64,000 nt of DNA. Source: Candidatus Parcubacteria bacterium. Its GTDB lineage: Bacteria > Patescibacteriota > Saccharimonadia > UBA4664 > JBIOIQ01. This document shows, one piece after another, positions 6,001-41,111 of the stretch. The position numbers and the translations under genes were made by a program. The stretch is from the NCBI GenBank assembly GCA_963718875.1, contig OY970378.1, positions 4,396 to 68,395 on the forward strand, written 5' to 3'. Numbering within the stretch: the stretch's first letter is position 1; each line of letters opens with the position of its first letter. The notes below the pieces were generated by a model that saw nothing but the letters and a program-made list of their open reading frames with translations, did no database searches and was not told the origin of the DNA.

Positions 6001-7441
6001 CCACCCCATTGACGGCAAAGCCACTCCCAAGAGTAAGAGTGCCAGAGTTGTCGGGCAGGGTCATGATTCTGGTTCCACTAGTGGAGGCCCCTGTAAAGCG
6101 GAAGTTGTTAGTGCCGGGGGTCCCGGACGTACCGGAAATAAACAGCTCGCCAAATGGTAAAGTAGCCGAACCTATATTAACGGCGCCGGCCGTGCCCGGT
6201 AATAGCGAGGTATTAATAGCTACGCTAGCTAGGTTAGAAAGGGCGGTGTTGGCTCCCCCGCCGCCGGCCCCAGCACAAGAGCCAAAAGCCAGGGTCCCGG
6301 CGTTGTCGGTGGTGGTAACACATTGACCCGTGCTACCTACTGCAGTAGGTAGCGTTAGGTTAAAAGTACTGGCGGTGGCACCGCTTTGGAGCGTAACCGT
6401 GTTGGAGTTGGCGCCGTTAAAAAACCTGACGGAACCGAGTCTTCCAGCGCTGGAAGCACCGAGGGTTAAGGAGGCAGAGGTAGGAATGGTAACACCGATG
6501 GCGCCGTGACCAATGTTGATGGCGGACGCATTGGTGGTACCAATGTTTATTACACCGGTGGTTCCAGTAGCAGTACCGGAGTCGACCGTAATATTGCCAG
6601 AATTTGAAGTTGTGCCACTAGCATTGCCGCTTTGTAGCGTCAGGACGTTGGAATGGGTGCTGGCGGCGTTGGTAGGAGCGGTTTGCAAAACGCCATTGAT
6701 AGAGATATTTCCAGTGCTGCCGTCAACGTTTAAAGCCGTAATGGTGCCACCGGCGTTTTGGATCCTAAAAGCGGTAGCGCTAGAGTTTTGGAATAGATTG
6801 GTACCACTAAAGGTTTGGTTGGCGGCTAGTTGGCCAAACTGGCTAGCGGTAAGCCCGCCGAGCTGACCCGCGTTTTGGGCATACGGGGAGGCTGTAAAGC
6901 GGATCATGGGTAGCATTTCCCCGTCCGGCGAACAGTTGGCAAACACGTTGGTGGCGCCACAATTGGTGGTGTTGCCCAAGTTGATCGATAGCCAAATGGT
7001 GTCGTTATTCCAAATATTGGTTGGTAGCGGGTTGCCGCCTTGGGCACCAAGGTTTACTTGAAAAATACCGCTACTTACGGAAATGGAGGTGGAGTTGTTG
7101 ACCAAGTGATCTTCGGTAAAAACTAAAGTTCCACCGGGGTTGCCAGCACTGGTTCCGGCTCCATCGGTGTAGAGCTTAAACTGAACATTATAGTTGCCGT
7201 CGGTAATATTGGTGCCATTAACATTGACTAGCTTGCCCTGAAAGTTAACTTGGGAATTAATGCCGACCGCAGCATTGGCTTGCGGCAAACTCCAAGACAC
7301 AAGAAACAAGTTACAAACAATAGCCAATATCCAAGCACCAAGTGCCCAATGTTTGTGAGTTGTGTGTTGTGTGTTGTGTGTTGTGTGGCGATTGTGTCTT
7401 GCTGGTTTCTTACCAAAAAACTTAGTTTTTCGAGTACGCAA
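1..7441 (-). CDS. giant repetitive secreted surface protein (N-terminal >2480 aa; C-terminus lies beyond window start). Thr/Gly/Asn/Ser/Ala-rich with internal ~180-aa repeat modules containing paired Cys
   Basis: Minus-strand frame (codon low coordinate = 2 mod 3) stays open from a TTG at 7441 (or GTG 7498) to position 1. Hand translation at 7100-7440 and 2940-3000 gives plausible protein. N-terminus reads KKPARHNRHTTHNTQHTTHKHWALGAWILAIVCNLFLVSWSLPQANA|AV, a signal peptide with AXA site. Plus-strand ORFs in this span are V/P/A-rich antisense artefacts. Internal nucleotide repeats, e.g. 3531-3590 vs 5711-5770. Confidence 0.6.
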   Translation of the reverse strand, partial: MRTRKTKFFGKKPARHNRHTTHNTQHTTHKHWALGAWILAIVCNLFLVSWSLPQANAAVGINSQVNFQGKLVNVNGTNITDGNYNVQFKLYTDGAGTSAGNPGGTLVFTEDHLVNNSTSISVSSGIFQVNLGAQGGNPLPTNIWNNDTIWLSINLGNTTNCGATNVFANCSPDGEMLPMIRFTASPYAQNAGQLGGLTASQFGQLAANQTFSGTNLFQNSSATAFRIQNAGGTITALNVDGSTGNISINGVLQTAPTNAASTHSNVLTLQSGNASGTTSNSGNITVDSGTATGTTGVINIGTTNASAINIGHGAIGVTIPTSASLTLGASSAGRLGSVRFFNGANSNTVTLQSGATASTFNLTLPTAVGSTGQCVTTTDNAGTLAFGSCAGAGGGGANTALSNLASVAINTSLLPGTAGAVNIGSATLPFGELFISGTSGTPGTNNFRFTGASTSGTRIMTLPDNSGTLTLGSGFAVNGVAYASNSTTLATTTVGTDGQCLVSNGVGFAPTFQTCSGVGSGSTLQAAYDNGNTIATTDAKDVSITLVNTATDSNFLVNIATSSTGKFAVQNNGTDLLRVTTAGGTVVNTGGLTVSAGGIDVNSTGITNAGSITGVGTNITGTGAVTLASGAGTILTVDSGTVGALNIGTSANAKTITLGNTTGATAVNIDAGSAGITLQGGQVQIMNTGVGTYDNYIDNPGFETGNEDEGWVNSASYALESTDTRTGNFAVTSTSTAGNFYYEHSIDIPTQGGEIWYGEAWIKSITSAGQGGLRFNWKQKNGTDSAITPNTYPGFGSTTADTWTRISGNATAPADAAFLRIFLRTGSGTTGVVHKWDDIYVTKEMTLPELNLNGNLLTGGTIRLGSTGILQNVSLDNTNSVTANTNILTAGTLGVARGGTGAATFTLNGVLLGNNASALNVTAAGTANQVFRVPSVGGAPAFGSIDISQSAAVTGTLGVTNGGTGAATFTQYGVLLGNGSSTLQVSAVGNTGQCLMGNNSAAPTWQACSGSGSGNTLQSAYTNSGVNEIVLDNTNKALTIRDNGTPITSSPLLEVQNNAGTNTYFSVSASGANNSSSANIAVTNTNASATVTTVNGLSVTPVGGANANTNANILNALNLPNVTTVTNNVFNALTVGTGYNSILVAGATPIINGSGTIQNAGFSTGVSYSNIAQVGALSSGSLTTGFTAVNVAQGGTGRATLTANGILYGNGTSAVGMTAAAGSAGLCLVSTAGNPVWGSCSGAGSGSTLQAAYDNGNTLSSAGYTAGRDLAVTLTNETTDSNFTVNIATGSTSKFAVQNNGTDLLAVSTTNGTVVNTGNLNVQAGNINTAGTTRLTNAGLLQNVTYNGNTIAVGYGGTGQTTFTQYGVIYGNATSGLGVTAQGTTGQCLIGQNSAAPIWSSCAGTGSGSTLQAGYTNSPTAVEIVVDATRGALTVQDNASPIGARLLEVQSNGGGSTYFGVSSTGITTSGTLTGGTTYTASTALQAPLLDTASNVALNIGTTNASVINLNQDTVVATGQNFSLAGGLASQNGYLLADAATNNLLVNGDFEQGTYGWSGINSSVTGGYSGDQAAEITTQSATVLSNDYIPVDPTRDVLQLEGYFKKTVAGGTPGVMYFGYIAYNAAKTAITTAPCGTYCYFAASGYVLPADGNWHKLSATTTGEGTVAGNFPVNTRYVRVLGLINYGATGATTQMDHITLKRINHGPLFVGNNFNATNMTDQYQASQLYTSAAGNLVLTAHDSGNVGIGTTTPNGIFQVATPTAGPGTVATNATITLTGTNTEFLNTFKVGDTITVQGETVRTIATIPSNTSLTVTVAFSTTASPLTYTLTGGERLTVLGNGNVRVGATTPVSNALIAAISNGNSIEFGHTNTAGYRSTIGAQSNDGAPFLAFNAEAGTNINTYLTRGIAGSILKSNLAGGFLFGNAPTATADNQAFTQSASLTAAGVLNVSTGYQIAGAAASGNYLRGNGTNFVSSAILAADLPAGSTNYIFNQSGLQASSNFHISGTGTADTSFVTPTLAAPAATGLAITANATSIWQVGGTNQNLTVQTSGTGTLTLDTVGSGTVTVGTNATTINLGTGTAAQTANVGTSTGTNAVNIATPNNSANTIKIGGTGGAAANSHSGTTITLQAGATATVLNNAGLNLQTFTNSTTAFQVANSIGAQSINIDTTDTNTITNPSFEGTDMSAWLKKIGTETTVARVTTQQYIGNAALQLTTTAVNSQGVKQNITLTPGTYTFSAFLKNQSGAVNYVFGYAADGATEVDCVQPMPTVPTTGWTRYACTMSTTATSGTPYLYFRQTTAAARTIYLDGVQIDAGAGVRPYGPGTISLNGVINSPVSFQNSVNSTNAFEIQNATGTSSLFVADTLNGRIGIGTSSPQQALTLGAGNAAAIETGAPAAPTLICNTSGGNLADGTYAYKIGASDGVGTTTAGAEASCSIAGGGGAGSVDLSWTAVTGAISYRVYGRTPSAQLLMSTVIA
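7355..7385. repeat. heptanucleotide repeat (CACACAA)x3 plus one imperfect unit on the coding strand, inside the 5' end (n-region of the signal peptide) of the giant gene
   Basis: Plus strand reads gtgtgttgtgtgttgtgtgttgtgtgg. Encodes HNTQHTTHNTQ-like residues. Confidence 0.8.
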
Positions 7442-12342: not shown

Positions 12343-13527
12343 TTAGAACCTGCCAGCGGCAACAATAGTTAGAGTGTCGGCGTAGTCGGTGGCGGCAGGA
12401 GTAATACCAGCAATGTTGGCACGCTCTACAAAGCTAATGACGTCACCAGCTGAAGTTCCGGTTGAGGAGGCAAATGGGGAATAAAAGCTGGGGTTAATGG
12501 GGCCCATTTTACAGGTACCGTTACCGGAGCAGGTGGCAAATCCACCCGTAGAGTCGTAGGCGGCATTGGCACTGGGGGTTCCAGCTTGGCCACCACCACC
12601 GGCGGTAACAGAGGTAACAGCAAAACCGTAGTCTTCAGCACCGGCCGTATTAGTGTGAGCAGCAGTACCAATTGAGTTAGTGGTGTTGTTAGATATTTTG
12701 TAGTTAGCAGCAGTTGGTGACATGAGGGCTCCATGTAAGTTGCCCGAGGAAGTATCGGAAACGGTTTTGGCATTGGCACTTAAATCCTTGACGTAAGCCA
12801 CCCAACCAGCCGAGGCGTTGGTGGTGACAGAAATGTTTAAGGCCGCCGTTGAGACAGTGGTAGCAGGATCTAGGTTGGTACTAAATGGTTGGGAGTTACC
12901 ACTTAGAGTAAAGATGAAGGTTGGCGGAACAGTGGCTGTAACATTAACTTGATCGCCTGTTCCACCGGAGCCTATTACAGAAGTGGCGTAGTTACTAGAG
13001 GCGGCGTCGGCAGTACCTGGGTAAGCGCCTGTACGGGTTGTAACTGAGCCGGTCAGGTTGTTCCCCGCACTGGCTGGCGTACTAAGGGCTGTGGTTGTGT
13101 TGGTCCAGTTAAAACAATAAATATTTGCCGAGGCAAGGTCACCGCTTACAAAGTCGACGGTTTGACCGGTGGGCGCATTAGTAGGTAGAGAGATGCCGGT
13201 CCATGATACTGCCCCCACAGGCCACGAGGTGTTAGATGTACTGTTAACCGTCCAGTTAGCAGGTGTAGTGCTGACAGTAAAGCCCGTAGGAAACACTACC
13301 CTGACGGTGGTTTCGGTGCCAGCTACATTGCCCGCGGTTGCGTTGACGCAAACGGTTCCGGAAGTAAAGACCGTACCCGCGGAAAGACGATCAAAACGAA
13401 CTAAAGCATAAGTGTACGGAGCGGCGGCGGCAGTGCCTACCATAAATGGAACAAAAGCTTGGAATAGTAAAGCTACGATGCTGGCTATTCGAAAGCGCTG
13501 AAATATTTTATGATTGTGTATTTTCAT
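12343..13527 (-). CDS. secreted protein, paralog B (same family; identical C-terminal ~150 aa ending TLTIVAAGRF)
   Basis: Signal peptide MKIHNHKIFQRFRIASIVALLFQAFVPFMVGTAAAAPY. N-terminal half diverged from paralog A, C-terminal half identical. Confidence 0.55.
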   Translation of the reverse strand: MKIHNHKIFQRFRIASIVALLFQAFVPFMVGTAAAAPYTYALVRFDRLSAGTVFTSGTVCVNATAGNVAGTETTVRVVFPTGFTVSTTPANWTVNSTSNTSWPVGAVSWTGISLPTNAPTGQTVDFVSGDLASANIYCFNWTNTTTALSTPASAGNNLTGSVTTRTGAYPGTADAASSNYATSVIGSGGTGDQVNVTATVPPTFIFTLSGNSQPFSTNLDPATTVSTAALNISVTTNASAGWVAYVKDLSANAKTVSDTSSGNLHGALMSPTAANYKISNNTTNSIGTAAHTNTAGAEDYGFAVTSVTAGGGGQAGTPSANAAYDSTGGFATCSGNGTCKMGPINPSFYSPFASSTGTSAGDVISFVERANIAGITPAATDYADTLTIVAAGRF

Positions 13528-13774: not shown

Positions 13775-14809
13775 CTAAAACGATCCCGAGGCGACTAGTG
13801 TTAGAGTATCTGTGTAGTCGCTGGCTGACGGGGTTGTGGCGCTAGCTTTAGCCTTAATGACAATCTGAGCCGAACCGCCCGTTATTGGGGCAGTGCTATT
13901 AAAAATAGTTTGAAAAGCTAACGCCAGCCCTCCAACGTTATTTGTGGAGCCATTAAATGGGCTTGCTACCGTAAATGGACCTCCGCTTGATTGAGTAGCA
14001 CTAGCTCCTTGTGCCCCATAGCCCGATGAGGCTGCACTAAGATCGGCGGTCGAAGAAACAATTAGTGGCCCAACCACATTACTTTTAAGCCCGGCATTTT
14101 TTGAGGCCACATAAACATTTCCCCCGGATTCGGCATTGGTATCAAGTGTGATACTGCCGTTGGGGGTAGCGGTAATAACGCTCCCGGCCGAAAGCGTACC
14201 TAGGTCTACCGTGCTGGGAGAGACAGAAAAAGATAATTGAGCAGTGGACGTTGATGCAGCCGCAGTAGGCCCGTAAGCTGACTCTGTAAATCTACCCTGA
14301 ATTGCCCTGGCTTTAACGGTGTAAGTAGTGTTGGGAGTTAAGCCTATTACCGTTGTTCCCGAGCCGCTACCCCATGACGAGTAGGTTCGGTAGTCTGTTG
14401 GGTAAACCAAGGTCGTGCCAACCGTATTGTCGCTTTTTACGTAATTAATGTTACTAGCAAATGCGTCGGTGCTAATCGCTACTGCGTACAATGCATCCGT
14501 AGGATTGCCTTGGGTACCAATAGTAATAAGTAGCTTATTATAGAAATTATTAACATTGGTAATGGTAATAGTGGGAACGTTGGAGTTTTGAGCATTATTA
14601 TTTCCGGATTGAACCGCCTTTGCAGTACCCGTAGACTGAGCGGTACTTTGTTCTCCGGCTGTGCCATTTACTCTATAAGTAGTCGAAGCCGAACTAGCTG
14701 TACCGCCAGTCCCTATGCTGTAATTATGCAGCTGATAGGTTGTGCTTGACGGCAATGCGGCTAACAGCATAACTGTACCGCCTAAAAAAGTACTAAACCA
14801 TCCACTCAT
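13775..14809 (-). CDS. secreted protein, paralog C (ends ...SDYTDTLTLVASGSF; same C-terminal strand motif)
   Basis: Signal peptide MSGWFSTFLGGTVMLLAALPSSTTYQ; Ser/Thr/Gly-rich; C-terminal motif shared with paralogs A and B. Confidence 0.5.
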   Translation of the reverse strand: MSGWFSTFLGGTVMLLAALPSSTTYQLHNYSIGTGGTASSASTTYRVNGTAGEQSTAQSTGTAKAVQSGNNNAQNSNVPTITITNVNNFYNKLLITIGTQGNPTDALYAVAISTDAFASNINYVKSDNTVGTTLVYPTDYRTYSSWGSGSGTTVIGLTPNTTYTVKARAIQGRFTESAYGPTAAASTSTAQLSFSVSPSTVDLGTLSAGSVITATPNGSITLDTNAESGGNVYVASKNAGLKSNVVGPLIVSSTADLSAASSGYGAQGASATQSSGGPFTVASPFNGSTNNVGGLALAFQTIFNSTAPITGGSAQIVIKAKASATTPSASDYTDTLTLVASGSF

Positions 14810-15108
14810 ACCCTTATCATAAGATAAGCATAGGCGTTTTACAACGGGACTAGGGTTGGTTCATTACGCTTAAAGCGGAAAGCATACTTTTATGCAGTGT
14901 AAATGGACTTTCAATAACTCCGGGTGGCTTTTCTTTAGCATGGAACTCTAGCAATATCTTGGTAAGAAGCGTCCTCAGAAGCCAATCCCCGATACGGATC
15001 ACAAACCGGTCCAGACAGCTTCAATCATTTTCGGCCAGGTTAATTTTAGTTTTAAAGAACCCGACTTAAAGACCAGGTGAAGGCGTATCATTTTTGAGGT
15101 TTTTAGGA

Positions 15109-15132
15109 AGTTATATAACGTGTTATATAACT
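15109..15132. promoter_or_regulatory. operator-like perfect inverted repeat agttatataac-gt-gttatataact (11-bp arms)
   Basis: Seen directly. Lies in the 870-bp AT-rich non-coding region upstream of the minus gene 13775..14809. Confidence 0.3.
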
Positions 15133-15680
15133 ATTTGTCTTTTTAAAAAATGCAATAGCCCAGGTTGAGCATCTGGCTGAAAATGTGAGGCATAATAGGC
15201 AGGTTGTATGGTTAAATTAACCATACAAATTTCAAAATTATATAATTCGTCAAACACCCTAAAAAGACATAAGTACTTCCTGCCCGAAAAAGGCATAGGC
15301 ACTCTCTTAAATAAAAAGCTAGGTTAGTGGGCTAGTTATCTCTTCGTTCAAAAACACTAAGGGATTACCACAGACGTCAAGCTGCTAAAAGACTTTTGAC
15401 TTCTGCTAGCGGGAGATAGGAGAGGCTGCACAAAGACATTTAAATGGTCTTATCTTAAATGTGTGCTACTTGCCCAGCATCTACCTGTCGGTAGACGCTG
15501 GGCTCAACAAATATGTAAGATGCCGCGTGTCCGAACCGAAAAAACGCAACTTAGCATTATGACAGCCCTGTCCGCTAAAAGTTTCAAAACTTTACTTAAA
15601 CAGCTCTGGTCATCTAGAGGCTAACTGGTTTGTCCTAGTTAGATTGTAGCTTGTTCCGTTTTAGCGTAATGAACCTGAGG

Positions 15681-16277
15681 TTAGTTCCAGCGAAAAGTGG
15701 ACATAATGTGATCCATGACTGCGCCATGCTCATCGGCATCTGCTTGTGGCGACGTAAAAGCAATTGTGGCTAGCTTATCGTGGCGCGGAATAAAAACCGT
15801 TTGCTCATAGCCTTCCTGAGTTTTTGTCATTATGATGGCTTCACTTCCGCCTACCTGTGCTTTTGTTTGAGTATAAAGTTCTGGCCTAAGTTGACGAAAA
15901 CGATATGAGGAATTTTCATTTATATTGGTAAAGCGAGCCTGGACGGCTACCGCCAGATGGTCGGAGCCGGCGATGCTACTAGTATTAAGAAGAAAATTGT
16001 CAAGATCGCCATAGCTCGCGCCATTCCCAAGCGGGGCTAAACTAAAGGACGAGGGATAAGAAAGGGTAAAAGTTTTTCCTTTCAGTTCTATATATGTTAC
16101 TTTTTTGCGGCTGGCGACAGAGGCTGTAGGGGTTTTTGTTTGAACCGTGCCTTGGGCAGGATTAGAGAGCAGATTTTTCAAGAGCCACCCGACCGCAAGC
16201 AATATCATGACAATACAGACTGTTCCTAATATAATGAGTCGTCGCGGTTTTGAAGTTTTAGTCATATCCGGAGGCAT
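15681..16277 (-). CDS. membrane-anchored hypothetical protein (N-terminal TM)
   Basis: ORF with TM segment LIILGTVCIVMILLAVGWLL; 6 nt downstream of the PKD gene, likely co-transcribed. Confidence 0.45.
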   Translation of the reverse strand: MPPDMTKTSKPRRLIILGTVCIVMILLAVGWLLKNLLSNPAQGTVQTKTPTASVASRKKVTYIELKGKTFTLSYPSSFSLAPLGNGASYGDLDNFLLNTSSIAGSDHLAVAVQARFTNINENSSYRFRQLRPELYTQTKAQVGGSEAIIMTKTQEGYEQTVFIPRHDKLATIAFTSPQADADEHGAVMDHIMSTFRWN

Positions 16278-16283
16278 GCTACT

Positions 16284-17252
16284 TTAAGTACCTAACGCTG
16301 GAGTTTGTGGTAGTCCTCGCTCCTCAGCTTTACGTCCTCGCCATTCACCCAACCAAAAGCTAACTACCATTAAAAGCAGAAGCGCCCAGATTGGCCAGGC
16401 CAAAAGCAACTGTCCCCCAGTAGGTCGGCTTGTAGTAAGCGCGGCTCCGACGTCGTTATTCACGATGGCGGCTAACTGTAACAGACCAGCTGTGCCAACC
16501 GAATCTACCGCTTTAATGGTTAAAACGTAACTGCCCTTATAACCGCCAGCTTTTTTGTATGTATGGGTGATGGTGAACTTGCCGGGAGTTGTGCGGGTGA
16601 AGAGATTGCTTGTTCCATCGCCCCAATCCACACTAACGGCATATGGGGCTTGACCGCCGAGTACTTCGACTTCCCAACTAACATTCTGACCAGGAACACT
16701 GCCTTTATAGATGCTGGGGGCTTTAATGATGACGTTGCCGTTTTGGCCATTAACCGAACCGTTAATGACATTAAGGGGGCTGGACGGTAAATCGTAGTAC
16801 GCAATCACTTCATTTGAATCTGGGCTTGATTGGTTGGCTTGATTTAGCATTTTTGCTACCAATTTGTTTTGCCCTATAAAAAGGTCGGCCTGCATGGCAA
16901 ATTGCCCCGTACGATCACAAATGACGGCCCCAGCAAGTACATCGTTTTTATAAACGTTGACCAGTAGCCCGCTTTGACAGGTACCCCTAATATTGATGGG
17001 GTTACTGGTGAAGCGCTGGCCATTTGCTGGGGCTGTAATAATAGGCCCATTTTTAGGGATAGCCCCCGGCACGACCGCCTGGACAGATATGGTACTAGTA
17101 ACAGGAGGAGGATCGTCAGCTTGGGCGAAAGCAGTAAGGCCAGCTAAGATGACTCCAGCAAGTAAAGTCACAAAAAGCAGCGATCCGTAAGAAGTGTGAT
17201 GGTGGGGTTGATAACGACCAGTGTGGCGATGGGGACTAAGCTTTGGTTTCAT
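16284..17252 (-). CDS. PKD-domain surface protein with signal peptide and C-terminal TM anchor
   Basis: PKD motif VSVDWGDGTS...ITHTY. N-terminal HHHTSY + hydrophobic segment. C-terminal LLLAWPIWALLLLMVVSFWLGEWRGRK. ATG at 17252 (the track's 17255 start is TTG). Paralog at 38021..38965. Confidence 0.65.
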   Translation of the reverse strand: MKPKLSPHRHTGRYQPHHHTSYGSLLFVTLLAGVILAGLTAFAQADDPPPVTSTISVQAVVPGAIPKNGPIITAPANGQRFTSNPINIRGTCQSGLLVNVYKNDVLAGAVICDRTGQFAMQADLFIGQNKLVAKMLNQANQSSPDSNEVIAYYDLPSSPLNVINGSVNGQNGNVIIKAPSIYKGSVPGQNVSWEVEVLGGQAPYAVSVDWGDGTSNLFTRTTPGKFTITHTYKKAGGYKGSYVLTIKAVDSVGTAGLLQLAAIVNNDVGAALTTSRPTGGQLLLAWPIWALLLLMVVSFWLGEWRGRKAEERGLPQTPALGT

Positions 17253-17257
17253 CAAGG

Positions 17258-17599
17258 TTATTGTAGCATAATAGCTTTGAGCTTTGAGCTTTGAGCTTTG
17301 AGCTTTGAGCTTTGAGCTTTGAGCTTTGAGCTTTGAGCTTTGAGCTTTGAGCTTTGAGCTTTGAGCTTTGAGCTTTGAGCTTTGAGCTTTGAGCTTTGAG
17401 CTTTGAGCTTTGAGCTTTGAGCTTTGAGCTTTGAGCTTTGAGCTTTGAGCTTTGAGCTTTGAGCTTTGAGCTTTGAGCTTTGAGCTTTGAGCTTTGAGCT
17501 TTGAGCTTTGAGCTTTGAGCTTTGAGCTTTGAGCTGGTTAATTATGTTTTGAGGAACTGAAGTGTCAAATGCCTGCCCTGAGCGAAGACGAAGGGTCAA
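17258..17599 (-). CDS. repeat-encoded ORF (MTLRLRSGQAFDTSVPQNIINQ-(LKAQSSK)n-AIMLQ); translation uncertain
   Basis: The 7-bp repeat is stop-free in all three minus-strand frames. The ORF ends 5 nt before the PKD gene ATG. Confidence 0.2.
   Translation of the reverse strand: MTLRLRSGQAFDTSVPQNIINQLKAQSSKLKAQSSKLKAQSSKLKAQSSKLKAQSSKLKAQSSKLKAQSSKLKAQSSKLKAQSSKLKAQSSKLKAQSSKLKAQSSKLKAIMLQ
17273..17535. repeat. heptanucleotide microsatellite (AGCTTTG)~37 (CAAAGCT on the gene strand)
   Basis: Perfect 7-bp periodicity over ~263 bp, ending 21 bp upstream of the PKD gene start codon. Confidence 0.95.
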
Positions 17600-17694
17600 A
17601 TGTTAATTGTTCCCGAGGTGTTAAATGTTAAATGGATGCCGTTGTACAAGACTAGCCATAAGCAGTATTATGTTAAGCGTTAAGAAGTTTTTTT

Positions 17695-18669
17695 GTGCAG
17701 CCATCTTCTCCCAATATTCGTCCCGATCCGCAAACCCAGGATCCCAACACCCAGACGTCTGGAGTGGCACCCTTAATGCCCTTGGATGCTTCCCTCGACG
17801 GATCTGCATCAACAGCTAAACGTCGTTCGCCGTTCGACACCTTGCGCAGAGCTCGTAGGACTAGCATAATTGCTGGCCTACTGGTAGCAGGCTTAGTAGC
17901 AATTATTATTGTGCTTTATATCACAAATGGAGCCAAACGTTCTGGACAGACGTCGAGCGGGTCTTTATCGGATACTGATTTGCAAAAACTTTCGTCAAAA
18001 AATATTAGCGGCGGGGGGTCTAACCAAGACTTGACGTTCCATAGCCCTACTACATTCGACAATACGCTTAAGGTTTCTGGTGCAACAACCCTAAAAGACT
18101 TATCTATTAGCGGCATCTTCAGCCCCAGCAGTATTGACGTAGGCAAAAACTTTCAAGTTGGCGGCGTAACGCTTTTGCAAGGAGATGTCACCACCAAGGG
18201 TGCGCTTTTAGTAGGTAATAATCTGACTGTTACGGGCTTAAGTAGTTTTGGAGGTAATGCCACATTCAACAGCGGGGCTGCTTTTGCAGGGAGTTTATCG
18301 GCTGACTCTTTAACTGTAAAAACTGCCAGCATCGGCGGTTTATCCTTCGGGCACATTGTGACCACTGGCGCTAACCCATCGGGAGCCATGGCAGTTGCGG
18401 CAGGAGGTGGAAGTTTTGTTATCAGTGGAAACGATACTAGCGGAACCATTACTTTTACAGTTGGGGGCAGCCCAATTGGCGGAGAAATGGTGAAGCTAAA
18501 CTTTCGCACTCCATACACCAGCACACCTCACGTTAATTTAACACCTGTTAATACTAGTTCAGCCGGTTCTCAATATTACGTAACCCGATCAGTTACAGCT
18601 TTTACTATTAATATCATTAATCCCACTCCGGGGGCACAATATGTGTTTGATTATCTTGTTACGCAGTAA
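17695..18669 (+). CDS. membrane-anchored surface protein with Gly/Ser/Thr-rich beta-repeat ectodomain
   Basis: TM helix IIAGLLVAGLVAIIIVLYI followed by repetitive G/S/T-rich segments. Divergent from the SSR/PKD operon. Confidence 0.5.
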   Translation: MQPSSPNIRPDPQTQDPNTQTSGVAPLMPLDASLDGSASTAKRRSPFDTLRRARRTSIIAGLLVAGLVAIIIVLYITNGAKRSGQTSSGSLSDTDLQKLSSKNISGGGSNQDLTFHSPTTFDNTLKVSGATTLKDLSISGIFSPSSIDVGKNFQVGGVTLLQGDVTTKGALLVGNNLTVTGLSSFGGNATFNSGAAFAGSLSADSLTVKTASIGGLSFGHIVTTGANPSGAMAVAAGGGSFVISGNDTSGTITFTVGGSPIGGEMVKLNFRTPYTSTPHVNLTPVNTSSAGSQYYVTRSVTAFTINIINPTPGAQYVFDYLVTQ

Positions 18670-18683
18670 CTACCCTAATCGGC

Positions 18684-21122
<2,439 letters not shown>

Positions 21123-21126
<4 letters not shown>

Positions 21127-22547
21127 GCTGACGCTTGAATAGAGTTAGATTTAATTAACTGGCTTATTGCAGAATCAAAATGTTGTTCAGTTGATAACTC
21201 TAAGGCTAGTTCTTTGGTTTGGCGCTTAAGCGAGTCGACGTTAAGTTTGATTTTACCTGCCGCATTAAGTACAGCAGACAGCATGAGCTGTTGCTCAGTT
21301 AAAGTATAGCGCTCATCGGGGGTTTGCTTGAAAACTTCATAAATATTTTTTCCCAACTCTAAACTGGCTTGAGACTCTAGGGCAAGCTCTGAACCAAAGT
21401 GTGAAAACTCCGAGGCCTGGCGGTATCCAGCCAGTGTTTTAAACAGATTACTCGATAAATTTTTTCGTAATGTGTTTTGGGCTCTACCCCCAACCCGCGA
21501 AACACTCAAGCCGGCATCGACGGCAGGGCGAATGCCTTGGCGAAATTGCTCTAGCGCAAAAATGATTTGCCCATCTGTAATAGACATTATGCTAGTCGGC
21601 AAATAAGCTGTAATGTCGTCGCTTGGTGTTACTACCACCGGGATCGCAGTGAGAGTTTTGCCATTGCTGGCTAGTTTGCCAGCTCGCTCCAATAAAGACG
21701 AGTGAGCATAAAACATATCACCGGGGTAAGAATCACGACCTGGGGGCACCTGTGATAACAAAGAAATTTCGCGATAGACTTTGGCATGACTTGAAAGATC
21801 GTCATAAATGACCACCACGTCGTGGCCCTTATGCCACAAATATTCGGCAATAGTGGCAGCAGCATAAGGTATTATGTATGACTGGGCCAATGAGTCGAAA
21901 ATGCTCGCAATCATGACAATCGTGTGTTCCAATGCTCCAGTCGCGGTTAATTTGGTAATAAGATTATCAACGTCGACTTTGCGCTTGCTAATTAAGACAT
22001 AAATAACAATATGACCCGTTCCTAACTGATTAACCGTCAAGCTAGTAAGAAAAGCTGTTTTGCCAGCTCGAGTGTCACCTAGGACCGCAATACGCTGTCC
22101 TAATACTATAGGGAACAAGGTATCTACTAAAGTAGTCCCCGTTATGAGCTGTTCATTTAGTAGGCTTCGCTCCATAATACCAGGAGCTGTGGCAAAAATT
22201 GATTGAGCCTGTGCAACCGCAATCGGCCCTTTTCCATCAAGCGGGACTCCCAAAGCTGAAATTACTCTTCCTACCAGCTCTTCACCCACTGGGGTTGTCA
22301 GTGTTTCATTTTGCAAAACAACCAGTGTCTTGAGAGTTATTTTTTCGCTGTTCAAATTCAAGACAGTCACCATGTCGGCGGTTATTTCCCGGACCAACCC
22401 TTGTTCTCCATTTTCAAACATCACCAGAGCCCCTACTGCTATATGTCGCAGCCCCTTAACTTTGACGAGAAATCGGTTTACTGCTACTACCTCTCCTGTG
22501 GGATTGTCTTGGTCTATTAATGCCTGAAAAGTTTGGTTTTCAAACAT
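21123..22547 (-). CDS. atpA: F1 ATP synthase alpha subunit
   Basis: GDTRAGKTAF P-loop and alpha-type fold. Confidence 0.85.
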
Positions 22548-23043
22548 CTTTGGCTGTACCCACCGTGTATCGCTTCATAACCTTTACCATCGCTTCAGAG
22601 TCGTTTAAAAGAGCTTTGCGGAACGAAAAATCATGAAGCTTGCTGCCCGTGCGTAGTGCAAACCCTCCCGCCAAAGCCCGATTGTATTCAAACGCAAGCA
22701 ATGCAAAAGCATGTATTTCGTTACGGAACCAAACCACAATATCGTTTCTTAGTTGAGCAGTGGGCAGACCTGGTAATGTTAGGCGTATTTCCGGAGCGGA
22801 GGTTTTTAGTTGTTCGAGCCAAGATAGGGCTTTTTCTAACTCAAATAGGGCTGGGAGAGTTTGGCTTGATTTCATCGATAACACCTCCGTGAGTCCTGGC
22901 GAAACAGCAGCTGTAGTAAAAGTTTTGGTAGGAGTGAGACTATGTTCTCGCGACAAATCAACTAACTCTGAGGCCTCTAAGTACAGTAGCTCCAAATCAT
23001 CACGACCAATTGTGATGGGACTTAGCTTATAGCCCACTATCAA
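22540..23043 (-). CDS. atpH: F1 ATP synthase delta (OSCP) subunit
   Basis: 167 aa; C-terminal GGFALRTGSKLHDFSFRKAL resembles the delta signature; position. Confidence 0.6.
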   Translation of the reverse strand: MIVGYKLSPITIGRDDLELLYLEASELVDLSREHSLTPTKTFTTAAVSPGLTEVLSMKSSQTLPALFELEKALSWLEQLKTSAPEIRLTLPGLPTAQLRNDIVVWFRNEIHAFALLAFEYNRALAGGFALRTGSKLHDFSFRKALLNDSEAMVKVMKRYTVGTAKDV

Positions 23044-25251: not shown

Positions 25252-25710
25252 GTAGCAATATTTTAGGTGATGAAACCATATTTTATAACTATGCCAAGTA
25301 TATAATTATATGTATCTGATTTAACTCGCAAGGATGTCGTAACAGAGCTTGTAGCCATAATTAAGTCTTACTTGAAATTGCCGATATGACAGGTAAAAAG
25401 AAAAACTCTTTTAATGGTAAGCTGTGGGGGGTTCTCCCTCTCGTTTTCTTTCCCTCGTTGTCTTCCCCTCGTTACCCTTATCGTCTGCCCGACCCTGAAC
25501 CAAAACAGTCAAGCGTAAGGGATCCGGTACTTCATTTTTGGGTATTATTAGAATTATATAATTCGCGAAAACCTTTAAATAGACATGTGGGTTGTCTTGG
25601 TAATAGAATAGCCCTGAATTCAAAACCCTCCATACTTGTCATCCTCGGTGAGTGGATCGCGGGTCCTTTTTTGGGTTGGATTTCGGCTTTTTAAAGGTGC
25701 CTAGGGCATA

Positions 25711-40124: not shown

Positions 40125-41111
40125 ATGCATTTACTCGCCGCAACCGCCACAAGCTTTCACTCATATAAAATACCTTGGTTTATGTATGCACTTGTGGCGG
40201 CAGCTTTGGTTGTGTATGCAATTATCGAATACCAGCACACCCGACACGATCACGAAATTAAGTTTAAAGAAGCCGTTCATTGGTCAATCATATATGTAAG
40301 CGCCGCGTTGCTGTTTGCTATCCCCGTGTTTATTTTTATCAGCCCCCAGGCGAGCGGCGAATATTTGGCGGCTTGGGCGGTTGAAAAGGCATTGAGCCTT
40401 GATAACTTATTTGTGGTTGGTCTAATATTTACCAGTTTTAAGGTTAAGCCTGTATTTGAACGCCGGATGCTAAACTATGGTATTGCAGGCGCCATTTTTT
40501 TTCGTTTAATTTTTATTGTGGCGGGCTTAGAACTTTTAAAACGATTTGAATGGCTTGGCATTGTATTTGGCCTGATCCTCCTGCATGCTGCCTGGAAAGC
40601 TTTGATGGATGCACGCAGTAAACATGGTCACGAAGAACAGCCAAACATGGCAAAGAGCTGGTTGTGGCGGTTTTTGACAAAAGTATTACCAATCCACCCC
40701 GAGTTTGTAGAGCATAAACTGATAGTAAAAGTTAAGGGAAAGCGCATGCTTACCATGATGGCGGCGGTAATCATTGTGATTGAAATAACGGACATTATTT
40801 TTGCGGTTGATAGCGTACCGGCAGTGTTAGCAGTAAGTCCAGATAGATTTATCGCTTATTCGAGTAATATATTTGCCCTTTTGGGGCTGCGGGCGTTGTT
40901 TTTTGTGTACCGAGCTGTGGCCGAGAAGTTTTGGGCGTTGACATGGGCTTTAGCAGGAGTGCTGGCCTGGATTAGCTTTAAACTCATATCCGGACCGCTA
41001 GGATTTCATGTCCCAGTATCGGTAAACTTGGCCGTGTTAGGGCTTTTACTAGGCGGTGGGGTGGTTGTTTCGTTAATGTGGCAAAAACACTCTCCCCACA
41101 TGTCATCCTGA
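40125..41111 (+). CDS. TerC-family integral membrane protein
   Basis: LSLDNLFVVGLIF and DIIFAVDSVPAVLAVS motifs. Confidence 0.7.
   Translation: MHLLAATATSFHSYKIPWFMYALVAAALVVYAIIEYQHTRHDHEIKFKEAVHWSIIYVSAALLFAIPVFIFISPQASGEYLAAWAVEKALSLDNLFVVGLIFTSFKVKPVFERRMLNYGIAGAIFFRLIFIVAGLELLKRFEWLGIVFGLILLHAAWKALMDARSKHGHEEQPNMAKSWLWRFLTKVLPIHPEFVEHKLIVKVKGKRMLTMMAAVIIVIEITDIIFAVDSVPAVLAVSPDRFIAYSSNIFALLGLRALFFVYRAVAEKFWALTWALAGVLAWISFKLISGPLGFHVPVSVNLAVLGLLLGGGVVVSLMWQKHSPHMSS

Follow-up and report, generated by a model that had tools for sequence, protein, structure and literature searches.

Can a long heptanucleotide repeat that abuts the start of a surface-structure gene switch that gene on and off? 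The question is raised by a 64,000-nucleotide stretch of contig OY970378.1 from a member of the Saccharimonadia (here called the window), in which a perfect heptamer tract lies directly upstream of a gene for a homologue of PamR, a pilus protein of candidate phyla radiation (CPR) bacteria. A preliminary description of the window had proposed the tract as a candidate phase-variation switch, acting either by fusing and separating two reading frames or by altering promoter spacing. The tract is almost certainly a non-coding, slippage-generated and length-hypervariable heptanucleotide satellite, that is, a long simple sequence repeat (LSSR). The reading we favour, with an even chance of being right, is that it is a slippage by-product which leaves a conserved, leaderless pamR promoter intact. 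This reading turns on the following three elements.

17273 to 17535, minus strand: perfect heptanucleotide tract, found by Tandem Repeats Finder and by direct reading of the sequence
16284 to 17252, minus strand: pamR-like gene, 322 aa, matching NCBIfam NF058578
17260 to 17270, minus strand: P_core, predicted extended -10 promoter TATGCTACAAT (TRTGn + TACAAT), 7 nt ahead of the ATG, between tract and ATG

The perfect 7-bp repeat of the preliminary description was recovered by Tandem Repeats Finder with a period of 7, 37.6 copies, 100% matches and a score of 526 over 263 bp. On the pamR-sense strand it reads (AGCTCAA)37.6, or (CAAAGCT)n and (AGCTTTG)n in other registers, with unique flanks on both sides, and it is the single (CAAAGCT)n locus within the 64 kb. 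A census of simple sequence repeats (SSRs; at least 3 copies and 12 nt) yielded only two in the window, this tract included, while mononucleotide shuffles of the window contain a mean of 0.85 such SSRs, all trivial. The length of the tract far exceeds chance. As DNA it forms AGCT-CAA-AGCT mini-hairpins (z = -6.6), which could favour slippage, and hypermutability is to be expected of 37 perfect units, and would then apply in this species. Among the long SSRs of prokaryotes heptamers are the commonest, an abundance attributed to polymerase slippage (PMC4679880, citing Mrazek 2007). An Rfam scan of the tract returned only sub-threshold miRNA-hairpin matches, because the repeat is quasi-palindromic; at gathering score, nothing else was found in the window except one tRNA, away from the tract. 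A role as replication origin or iteron array was rejected, given that the cumulative GC skew is monotonic over the window and that the tract is not conserved.

The protein encoded next to the tract matches NF058578 (CPR_pilus_PamR, "pilus system RbmA-like protein PamR") with an E-value of 2.6e-78; the match covers positions 3-288 of the 297-position profile and scores 262.9 bits. By this profile match it is a clear PamR homologue, with the equivalog cut-off of 300 bits not reached. Its AlphaFold model, with a predicted local distance difference test (pLDDT) score of 84, has helices at residues 22-45 and 280-312 and beta-sandwiches at 71-153 and 175-264. From its N-terminus, the protein consists of a His-rich motif and a transmembrane (TM) or signal helix, then a pair of Ig/FnIII-like domains, and finally a TM helix at the C-terminus. 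PamR is likewise described as two tandem FnIII/Ig-like domains followed by a C-terminal TM helix (Troman et al., bioRxiv 10.64898/2026.03.03.709456), and it is proposed to terminate growth of the Pam pilus and to anchor the filament to the membrane (same preprint). A Foldseek search with the model retrieved tandem Ig/FnIII adhesin domains, and RbmA was not among the top 50 matches. The protein has 85 homologues, and all named ones are from Saccharimonadia, Saccharibacteria or Patescibacteria. The pamR N-terminus is conserved from M1 onwards, with H17, T20, S21 and Y22 nearly invariant. Ahead of the TM helix stands a motif, HxHTGRxxPHxHTSY, that hardly varies among 64 homologues. The public annotation of the gene (P0001) is N-terminally truncated to 295 aa by the use of an internal GTG start (V28) and is otherwise identical.

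These values confirm that the tract adjoins the start of a surface-structure gene. The preliminary description had called this gene a PKD surface-protein gene, and here the label has to be amended: the match to Pfam PKD (PF00801) is sub-threshold (15.3 bits against a cut-off of 23.5, E-value 0.021), as is that to PKD_4 (13.8 against 27), and the family is that of PamR. A few of the homologues do pass the PKD threshold.

Between the tract and the ATG lies the pamR promoter motif TGCTACAAT at 17268-17260. P_core begins 3-4 nt past the tract, whose end at 17273 precedes the TG of the extended -10 by 4 nt. It appears to be an extended -10 promoter of Gram-positive type, and its spacing predicts a leaderless or 1-nt-leader pamR mRNA, expected to start at about 17252-17253. 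Relative to this start, which we infer, the tract extends from about -21 to -283. The -35 position of pamR falls within the tract, where it reads CTCAAA (ctcaat in L003, the closest relative). Because this position is inside the tract, the spacing is independent of copy number, and both the -35/-10 spacing and the -35 sequence are unchanged at any copy number above about 5. Nor is a ribosome-binding site (RBS) evident at the pamR-like start. The proposed change of promoter-to-RBS spacing is thus not borne out.

The leaderless-type arrangement is common in this genome. Among the TAnnnT-N5-8-ATG/GTG sites that open at least 100 codons in the window, the TG extension is present in 17 of 53, against a background of 6.4% (P = 1.8e-8). 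An extended -10 (TGnTAnnnT) stands 5-8 nt ahead of the start at 17 long open reading frames (ORFs), for example at 40125, 42899, 52436, 55839, 59972 and 63237, which suggests that about a quarter of the genes in the window may be transcribed as leaderless mRNAs. Several other genes, those of the ATP synthase included, are also without a clear Shine-Dalgarno sequence.

The tract sits in a divergent intergenic region of 442 bp (17253-17694), bounded on its other side by a plus-strand gene that begins at 17695.

17695 to 18669, plus strand: divergent neighbour from the ORF list, 324 aa, with an N-terminal TM helix followed by a beta-rich region
17643 to 17671, plus strand: promoter-like site of the divergent gene, TGTACA-17-TATTAT

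The region was compared with seven orthologous loci, which rank by PamR identity as L003 (75%), L001 (64%), L002 (64%), L126 (55%), L127/L128 (49%) and L124 (40%). Neither the tract nor the ORF that runs through it is present in any of the seven, and in the three closest the whole intergenic region measures only about 75-110 bp. All seven retain the extended -10, TRTGnTAnAAT, 6-8 nt before the ATG: the aligned orthologues carry (C/A)TTATGnTAnAAT, then 6-8 nt, then ATG, and the L124 version is TGATATACT-N6-ATG. When the intergenic region of the window is aligned globally to its L003 counterpart, two blocks stand out as conserved, one with the plus-strand gene start and promoter, up to CTTGTACA, where it ends at the -35 hexamer of the divergent promoter-like site, and the other with the pamR promoter and gene start. 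In the window the two blocks are parted by about 340 extra bases, made up of 103 bp of unique sequence and most of the tract. The bases of L003 that align to the last repeat units are TCAGAGC..AAACTCAATGGTCAAACTG (also written TCAGAGC..TCAATGGTCAAACTG). This stretch has the look of a degenerate proto-repeat, and (TCAAAGC)n could have arisen from such a sequence by slippage.

The intergenic site between pamR and the tail-fibre-like gene evidently tolerates insertions, because L127/L128 holds an unrelated one there: a GC-rich insert of about 428 bp without any SSR (L127 2073-2500). A metagenome scan for the locus found only distant relatives, and exact-protein look-ups with the PamR-like protein, the 198-aa protein encoded downstream of it, AtpD and P0001 found no other copy of it.

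On the far side of the tract, three further minus-strand features bear on its possible function.

17541 to 17568, minus strand: P_up, predicted near-consensus sigma-70-type promoter TTGACA-16-CATAAT, 11 of 12 consensus matches
17543 to 17633, minus strand: six AWTTRAC heptamers (two tandem pairs and two singles), against 0.055 expected (about 100-fold)
17258 to 17599, minus strand: repeat ORF of 113 aa with a TTG start, from the mechanical ORF list, judged spurious

P_up ends 6 nt before the tract, and transcription from it is predicted to start at about 17534-17535, on the first base of the tract. It is absent from L003. Sites with at least 11 of 12 promoter matches number 7 in the window, against 1.45 in shuffles (about 5-fold enrichment), so that most of them are probably real promoters. 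The AWTTRAC units, namely ATTTAAC twice in tandem, AATTAAC-ATTTGAC in tandem and the two singles, all fall within 100 bp in the roughly 103-bp segment specific to the window, and both P_up hexamers overlap AWTTRAC units. They could be the decayed remains of an older heptamer array, or else operator-like boxes. The 103-bp segment was also considered as a mobile element and dropped, since terminal repeats are lacking and neither the window nor the relatives contain a second copy.

In the reading we favour, the tract would have grown where it now lies, out of a short proto-repeat that occupied the -35 position of pamR. This expansion, together with the roughly 103 bp of older decayed heptamers, would have pushed the originally back-to-back promoters of pamR and the tail-fibre-like gene about 340 bp apart. 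Expression of pamR would proceed from the conserved extended -10, leaderless-type promoter between tract and ATG. With P_core downstream of the tract, repeat number could change neither the -35/-10 spacing nor the expressed frame, and the gain or loss of a unit would leave the spacing, the RBS and the frame of every expressed ORF as they are, so that pamR would not be switched ON/OFF by the tract. If copy number had an effect on pamR, it would be secondary and graded, and a strong phenotype would not be expected. Several observations weigh against this account. A 263-bp perfect satellite is striking in a reduced genome of 1.19 Mb; the tract is framed exactly by two promoter-like elements, P_up 6 nt before it and P_core 3-4 nt after it; and both SSRs of the window lie at the 5' ends of surface-protein genes. 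The organism is moreover a host-dependent episymbiont, and SSR contingency loci are common in such lifestyles elsewhere. Both the neutrality of the tract and the pamR transcription start are, finally, points that we infer.

Against these considerations the other explanations can be weighed. The one proposed by the preliminary description is that slippage toggles the repeat ORF between a separate peptide and an N-terminally fused or occluded product. Its arithmetic is correct. All three frames of the minus (gene) strand are open through the tract and encode the same cyclic heptapeptide SSKLKAQ, with every frame of the opposite strand stopped; the repeat ORF (start 17599) ends at TAA 17260-17258, 5 nt ahead of the pamR-like ATG at 17252; and the unit of 7 nt is not divisible by 3, so that slippage shifts the frame. 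In simulations, the gain of one unit (as claimed) or the loss of two brings the repeat ORF into the frame of the downstream gene via ...SYYATITL-MKPKL, with SYYATITLMKPK as the fusion junction, and the loss of one or the gain of two ends it at a nearby TAG. The toggle itself is nevertheless very improbable. The repeat is not part of any expressed ORF with a functional start ahead of it: the sole candidate start, TTG 17599, is upstream of the predicted P_up transcription start, no minus-strand promoter was found upstream of it, and no ATG, GTG or TTG occurs from about 17534 to 17269, within the tract or after it. The conserved promoter intervenes between tract and ATG, the repeat ORF is missing in all relatives, and an extension of about 115 aa would bury the conserved N-terminal signal or anchor helix. 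The ORF is open solely because the repeat is stop-free, and we judge it spurious; its Pfam matches are low-complexity coiled-coil noise, all below the cut-offs, and its interpretation as a real coiled-coil protein was rejected on these grounds. We give equally little credence to an assembly or polishing artefact in the copy number or in the tract itself. Tandem repeats are error-prone in assemblies, but the sequence comes from a single contig of 1.19 Mb, the junctions with the unique flanks are clean, both flanks can be aligned to relatives, and assemblers collapse or miscount repeats rather than invent a perfect 263-bp heptamer array.

A more substantial alternative, which we regard as a tentative possibility, is that P_up fires and that the tract forms a 5' leader of about 282 nt in a second, longer pamR mRNA, its copy number tuning output as at hmw1A/hmw2A of Haemophilus influenzae. 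This would operate by one or more of three routes, namely leader structure and stability through AGCU helices, the translation efficiency of the long leader, or read-through that occludes P_core, and would result in cell-to-cell heterogeneity in the level of the pilus terminator and anchor, hence in pilus length or anchoring. The near-consensus match of P_up, its predicted start at the first base of the tract and the enrichment of such sites in the window are consistent with it, as is the fact that the gene product is a pilus component for host contact. The AGCT core of the unit allows 4-bp self-pairing, and the tract RNA folds better than shuffles (minimum free energy -84 kcal/mol, z = -5.9) into stacked 4-bp AGCU helices, with repeat-to-repeat pairing only; yet the ensemble is degenerate, the centroid is unpaired within the tract, and no complementary arm is found downstream for a long hairpin of the hmw type. 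A precedent exists in the (ATCTTTC)n tracts upstream of hmw1A/2A, which are transcribed as part of the 5' untranslated region (UTR), expression being lower at higher copy number (PMC12721329). Shine-Dalgarno sequences are weak or absent at many starts here, so that a missing one does not bar translation from a leadered mRNA, and an argument against long-leader translation on this basis was withdrawn. On the other hand, P_up and its flanking segment are missing in relatives, its hexamers stem from inherently promoter-like AWTTRAC units, such that the match may be a by-product, and pamR has its own conserved promoter downstream of the tract. It is also conceivable, though improbable, that the tract sets the distance and rotation between the pamR core promoter and the AWTTRAC boxes or the divergent promoter, given that a 7-bp unit corresponds to some two thirds of a turn of the helix, the phase being regained after three units, or that the 37 heptads form a protein-binding array. 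The heptad operators of pSM19035 omega are the model for such an array. In support, the AWTTRAC boxes are enriched about 100-fold directly upstream of the tract, and in other bacteria the binding of regulators can be modulated by SSRs that lie upstream of promoters (PMC12721329, a review). However, no regulator is known, boxes and tract are both unconserved in relatives, binding arrays are usually short, degenerate and conserved instead of 37 perfect copies, and action across about 280 bp would need DNA looping.

Heptamer repeats of the same unit are found widely. Stretches of (CAAAGCT)4 or longer occur at no fewer than 120 loci in species-representative genomes from many phyla (L004-L123). 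Among the matches listed, some metagenome-assembled genomes carry 3-5 separate (CAAAGCT)4 loci, and the tracts are often flanked by related heptamer arrays (GCTCAnn, GAGCRAT). Loci L044, L045, L063, L087 and L121 come from Phycisphaerales Desfum bin_9, and L020, L035, L072 and L117 from Bin_7_3. In 805 kb around these tracts, the period is 7 in 186 of the 206 perfect tandem repeats. About three quarters of the listed tracts are intergenic, and those with both neighbours present lie between convergent genes in 19 cases against 4 between divergent ones, mostly past gene 3' ends. In viral contigs, CAAAGCT has 2 matches, against 3 and 20 for two control heptamers of the same composition, and the idea of CAAAGCT as a special unit was dropped because it is no commoner than these controls. 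In several CPR genomes, (CAAAGCT)4-5 is found inside long ORFs on the coding strand (L028 and L088, both Peribacteria, and L008, L022, L031, L077, L081, L098 and L115), where it would encode a peptide of the SKLKAQS type. The downstream flanks of L028 and L088 are alike (…ATCCATCTTGCCGC…), which suggests that in these two species the tracts may have corresponding places within homologous genes.

A different heptamer is found closer to home. In a related Saccharimonadia species from two Joint Genome Institute (JGI) samples with identical PamR (P0012), the stop of the tail-fibre-like gene is followed, after 2-3 nt, by a (TCTAACT)n tract. Its copy number is 9.4 in one sample (L127 988-1053) and 14.4 in the other (L128 952-1052) with identical flanks, a difference that short-read assembly collapse could also produce. 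The tract lies in a convergent 3' intergenic region with no promoter role evident. This constitutes direct though imperfect evidence of heptamer length variation in this clade, and it shows that such repeats also come into being at sites with no apparent promoter function.

The second SSR of the window, (CACACAA)4-5 at 7353-7387 on the minus strand, is also a heptamer. It lies inside the 5' coding end of a giant minus-strand ORF that continues beyond the start of the window and has at least 2,400 aa, and it encodes a His-rich N-terminal stretch, ARHNRHTTHNTQHTTHKHW, just ahead of a TM helix. The repeat is in frame now, and a one-unit change would meet stops in the other frames. Although short, it may be a better candidate for an ON/OFF frameshift switch than the 37-copy tract. 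Tandem Repeats Finder additionally reported a repeat of 14-bp period at 25435-25473 (2.7 copies, 84% matches).

The genes around the tract belong to the setting in which pam operons are described. Given the order and coordinates below, pilin-like genes, the tail-fibre-like gene and the ATP synthase genes are all found near pamR.

15681 to 16277, minus strand: 198-aa gene, starting 6 nt past the pamR stop
13775 to 14809, minus strand: pilin-like ORF with a weak PamT match (NCBIfam)
12343 to 13527, minus strand: pilin-like ORF, from the ORF list and neighbourhood
18684 to 23043, minus strand: atp genes, ATP synthase operon

The pam operon is reported to adjoin ATP synthase genes and a tail-fibre-like gene (bioRxiv 10.64898/2026.03.03.709456). 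From its gene context, the 324-aa divergent neighbour probably corresponds to the "tail fibre-like protein" found together with pam operons, and we treat this as a candidate identity; a divergent neighbour of 334-361 aa is kept in L001, L002, L126 and L127. The 198-aa gene is probably co-transcribed with pamR, and the same order of pamR followed by this gene is found in these four loci. Between the 198-aa gene and the first pilin-like gene, where relatives have only 25-50 nt, the window carries an insert of about 818 bp (14858-15675) bracketed by 17-nt inverted repeats, GGTTCATTACGCTTAAA and TTTTAGCGTAATGAACC, which are 94% complementary. The insert looks like a miniature inverted-repeat transposable element (MITE) or another non-autonomous element, and it holds a perfect 12+12 palindrome at 15204-15228.

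Saccharimonadia are obligate episymbionts. The Pam pilus, first described in 2026, is believed to bring about contact with the host; the preprint is silent on repeats or phase variation at pam loci, the word "repeat" occurring 0 times (bioRxiv 10.64898/2026.03.03.709456). Our literature searches found SSR phase variation reported for neither Saccharibacteria nor Patescibacteria. If the tract acts as a transcribed leader, a clonal population would keep producing cells that differ in pilus length or anchoring, and hence in host attachment. If the repeat tunes pamR, CPR bacteria would share the "contingency locus" strategy of Haemophilus and Neisseria for diversifying host-interaction structures, and repeat length in long reads would be a simple marker of that variation. 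The fullest version of this possibility, in which a transcribed heptamer leader heading the Pam cluster tunes PamR as the first SSR contingency element in a CPR/Patescibacteria episymbiont, with (CACACAA)4-5 as a second, true ON/OFF locus, is in our view unlikely. If the repeat does not tune pamR, the locus would be a clean example of a heptamer satellite born from a proto-repeat in a promoter region and grown to 263 bp in a 1.2-Mb genome, with both flanking promoters spared.

In comparison with known systems, the classical SSR contingency loci are the CTCTT coding repeats of Neisseria opa and the (TA)n promoter-spacer repeats of H. influenzae hifA/hifB. The tract resembles these in being an SSR beside a surface or pilus gene with a unit that is not a multiple of three and, as at hifA/hifB, in its position in a divergent promoter region. 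Unlike that of opa, however, it lies outside any translated ORF and, unlike that of hifA/hifB, it is not between -35 and -10. Hence, neither the opa nor the hif ON/OFF mechanism applies.

The comparison with hmw1A/hmw2A (PMC12721329; PMC8262952; PMC2424069) is closer. Both involve a 7-bp unit in tens of copies directly upstream of a surface adhesin or pilus gene, in a host-dependent organism with a small genome, and in both a promoter, predicted here, lies upstream of the tract, so that a 5'-UTR tract is possible. The differences are that the unit sequence is unrelated, that a second, conserved promoter of leaderless type lies downstream of the tract here, and that the G-rich complementary arm of the long 5'-UTR hairpin targeted by ribonuclease (RNase) III is absent. 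The likeness to the CPR Pam system extends over the PamR homologue, its described architecture and its described context of pilin-like, tail-fibre-like and ATP synthase genes, the difference being a score below the equivalog cut-off.

As a repeat, the tract most readily joins the intergenic long heptamer SSRs, represented by the cyanobacterial short tandemly repeated repetitive (STRR) sequences, GGGGAYT in Nostoc, GGGAATC in Xanthomonas and TAACTGA in Beggiatoaceae and Bacteroidetes (PMC4692102; PMC4679880; Mrazek 2007 as cited there). These are perfect or near-perfect tandem heptamers, mostly intergenic, that vary in length between close relatives, and their origin is ascribed to slippage favouring 7-nt units; long perfect intergenic arrays of 26-43 copies are given there without demonstrated function (PMC4679880; PMC4692102). 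The tract is likewise an intergenic array of tandem heptamers far beyond chance. Two traits set it apart: the published arrays are defined by many loci per genome and the 64 kb hold one, and its place between two promoters at the head of a pilus cluster is atypical, given that the (CAAAGCT)n tracts of other genomes, among the matches listed, mostly follow gene 3' ends.

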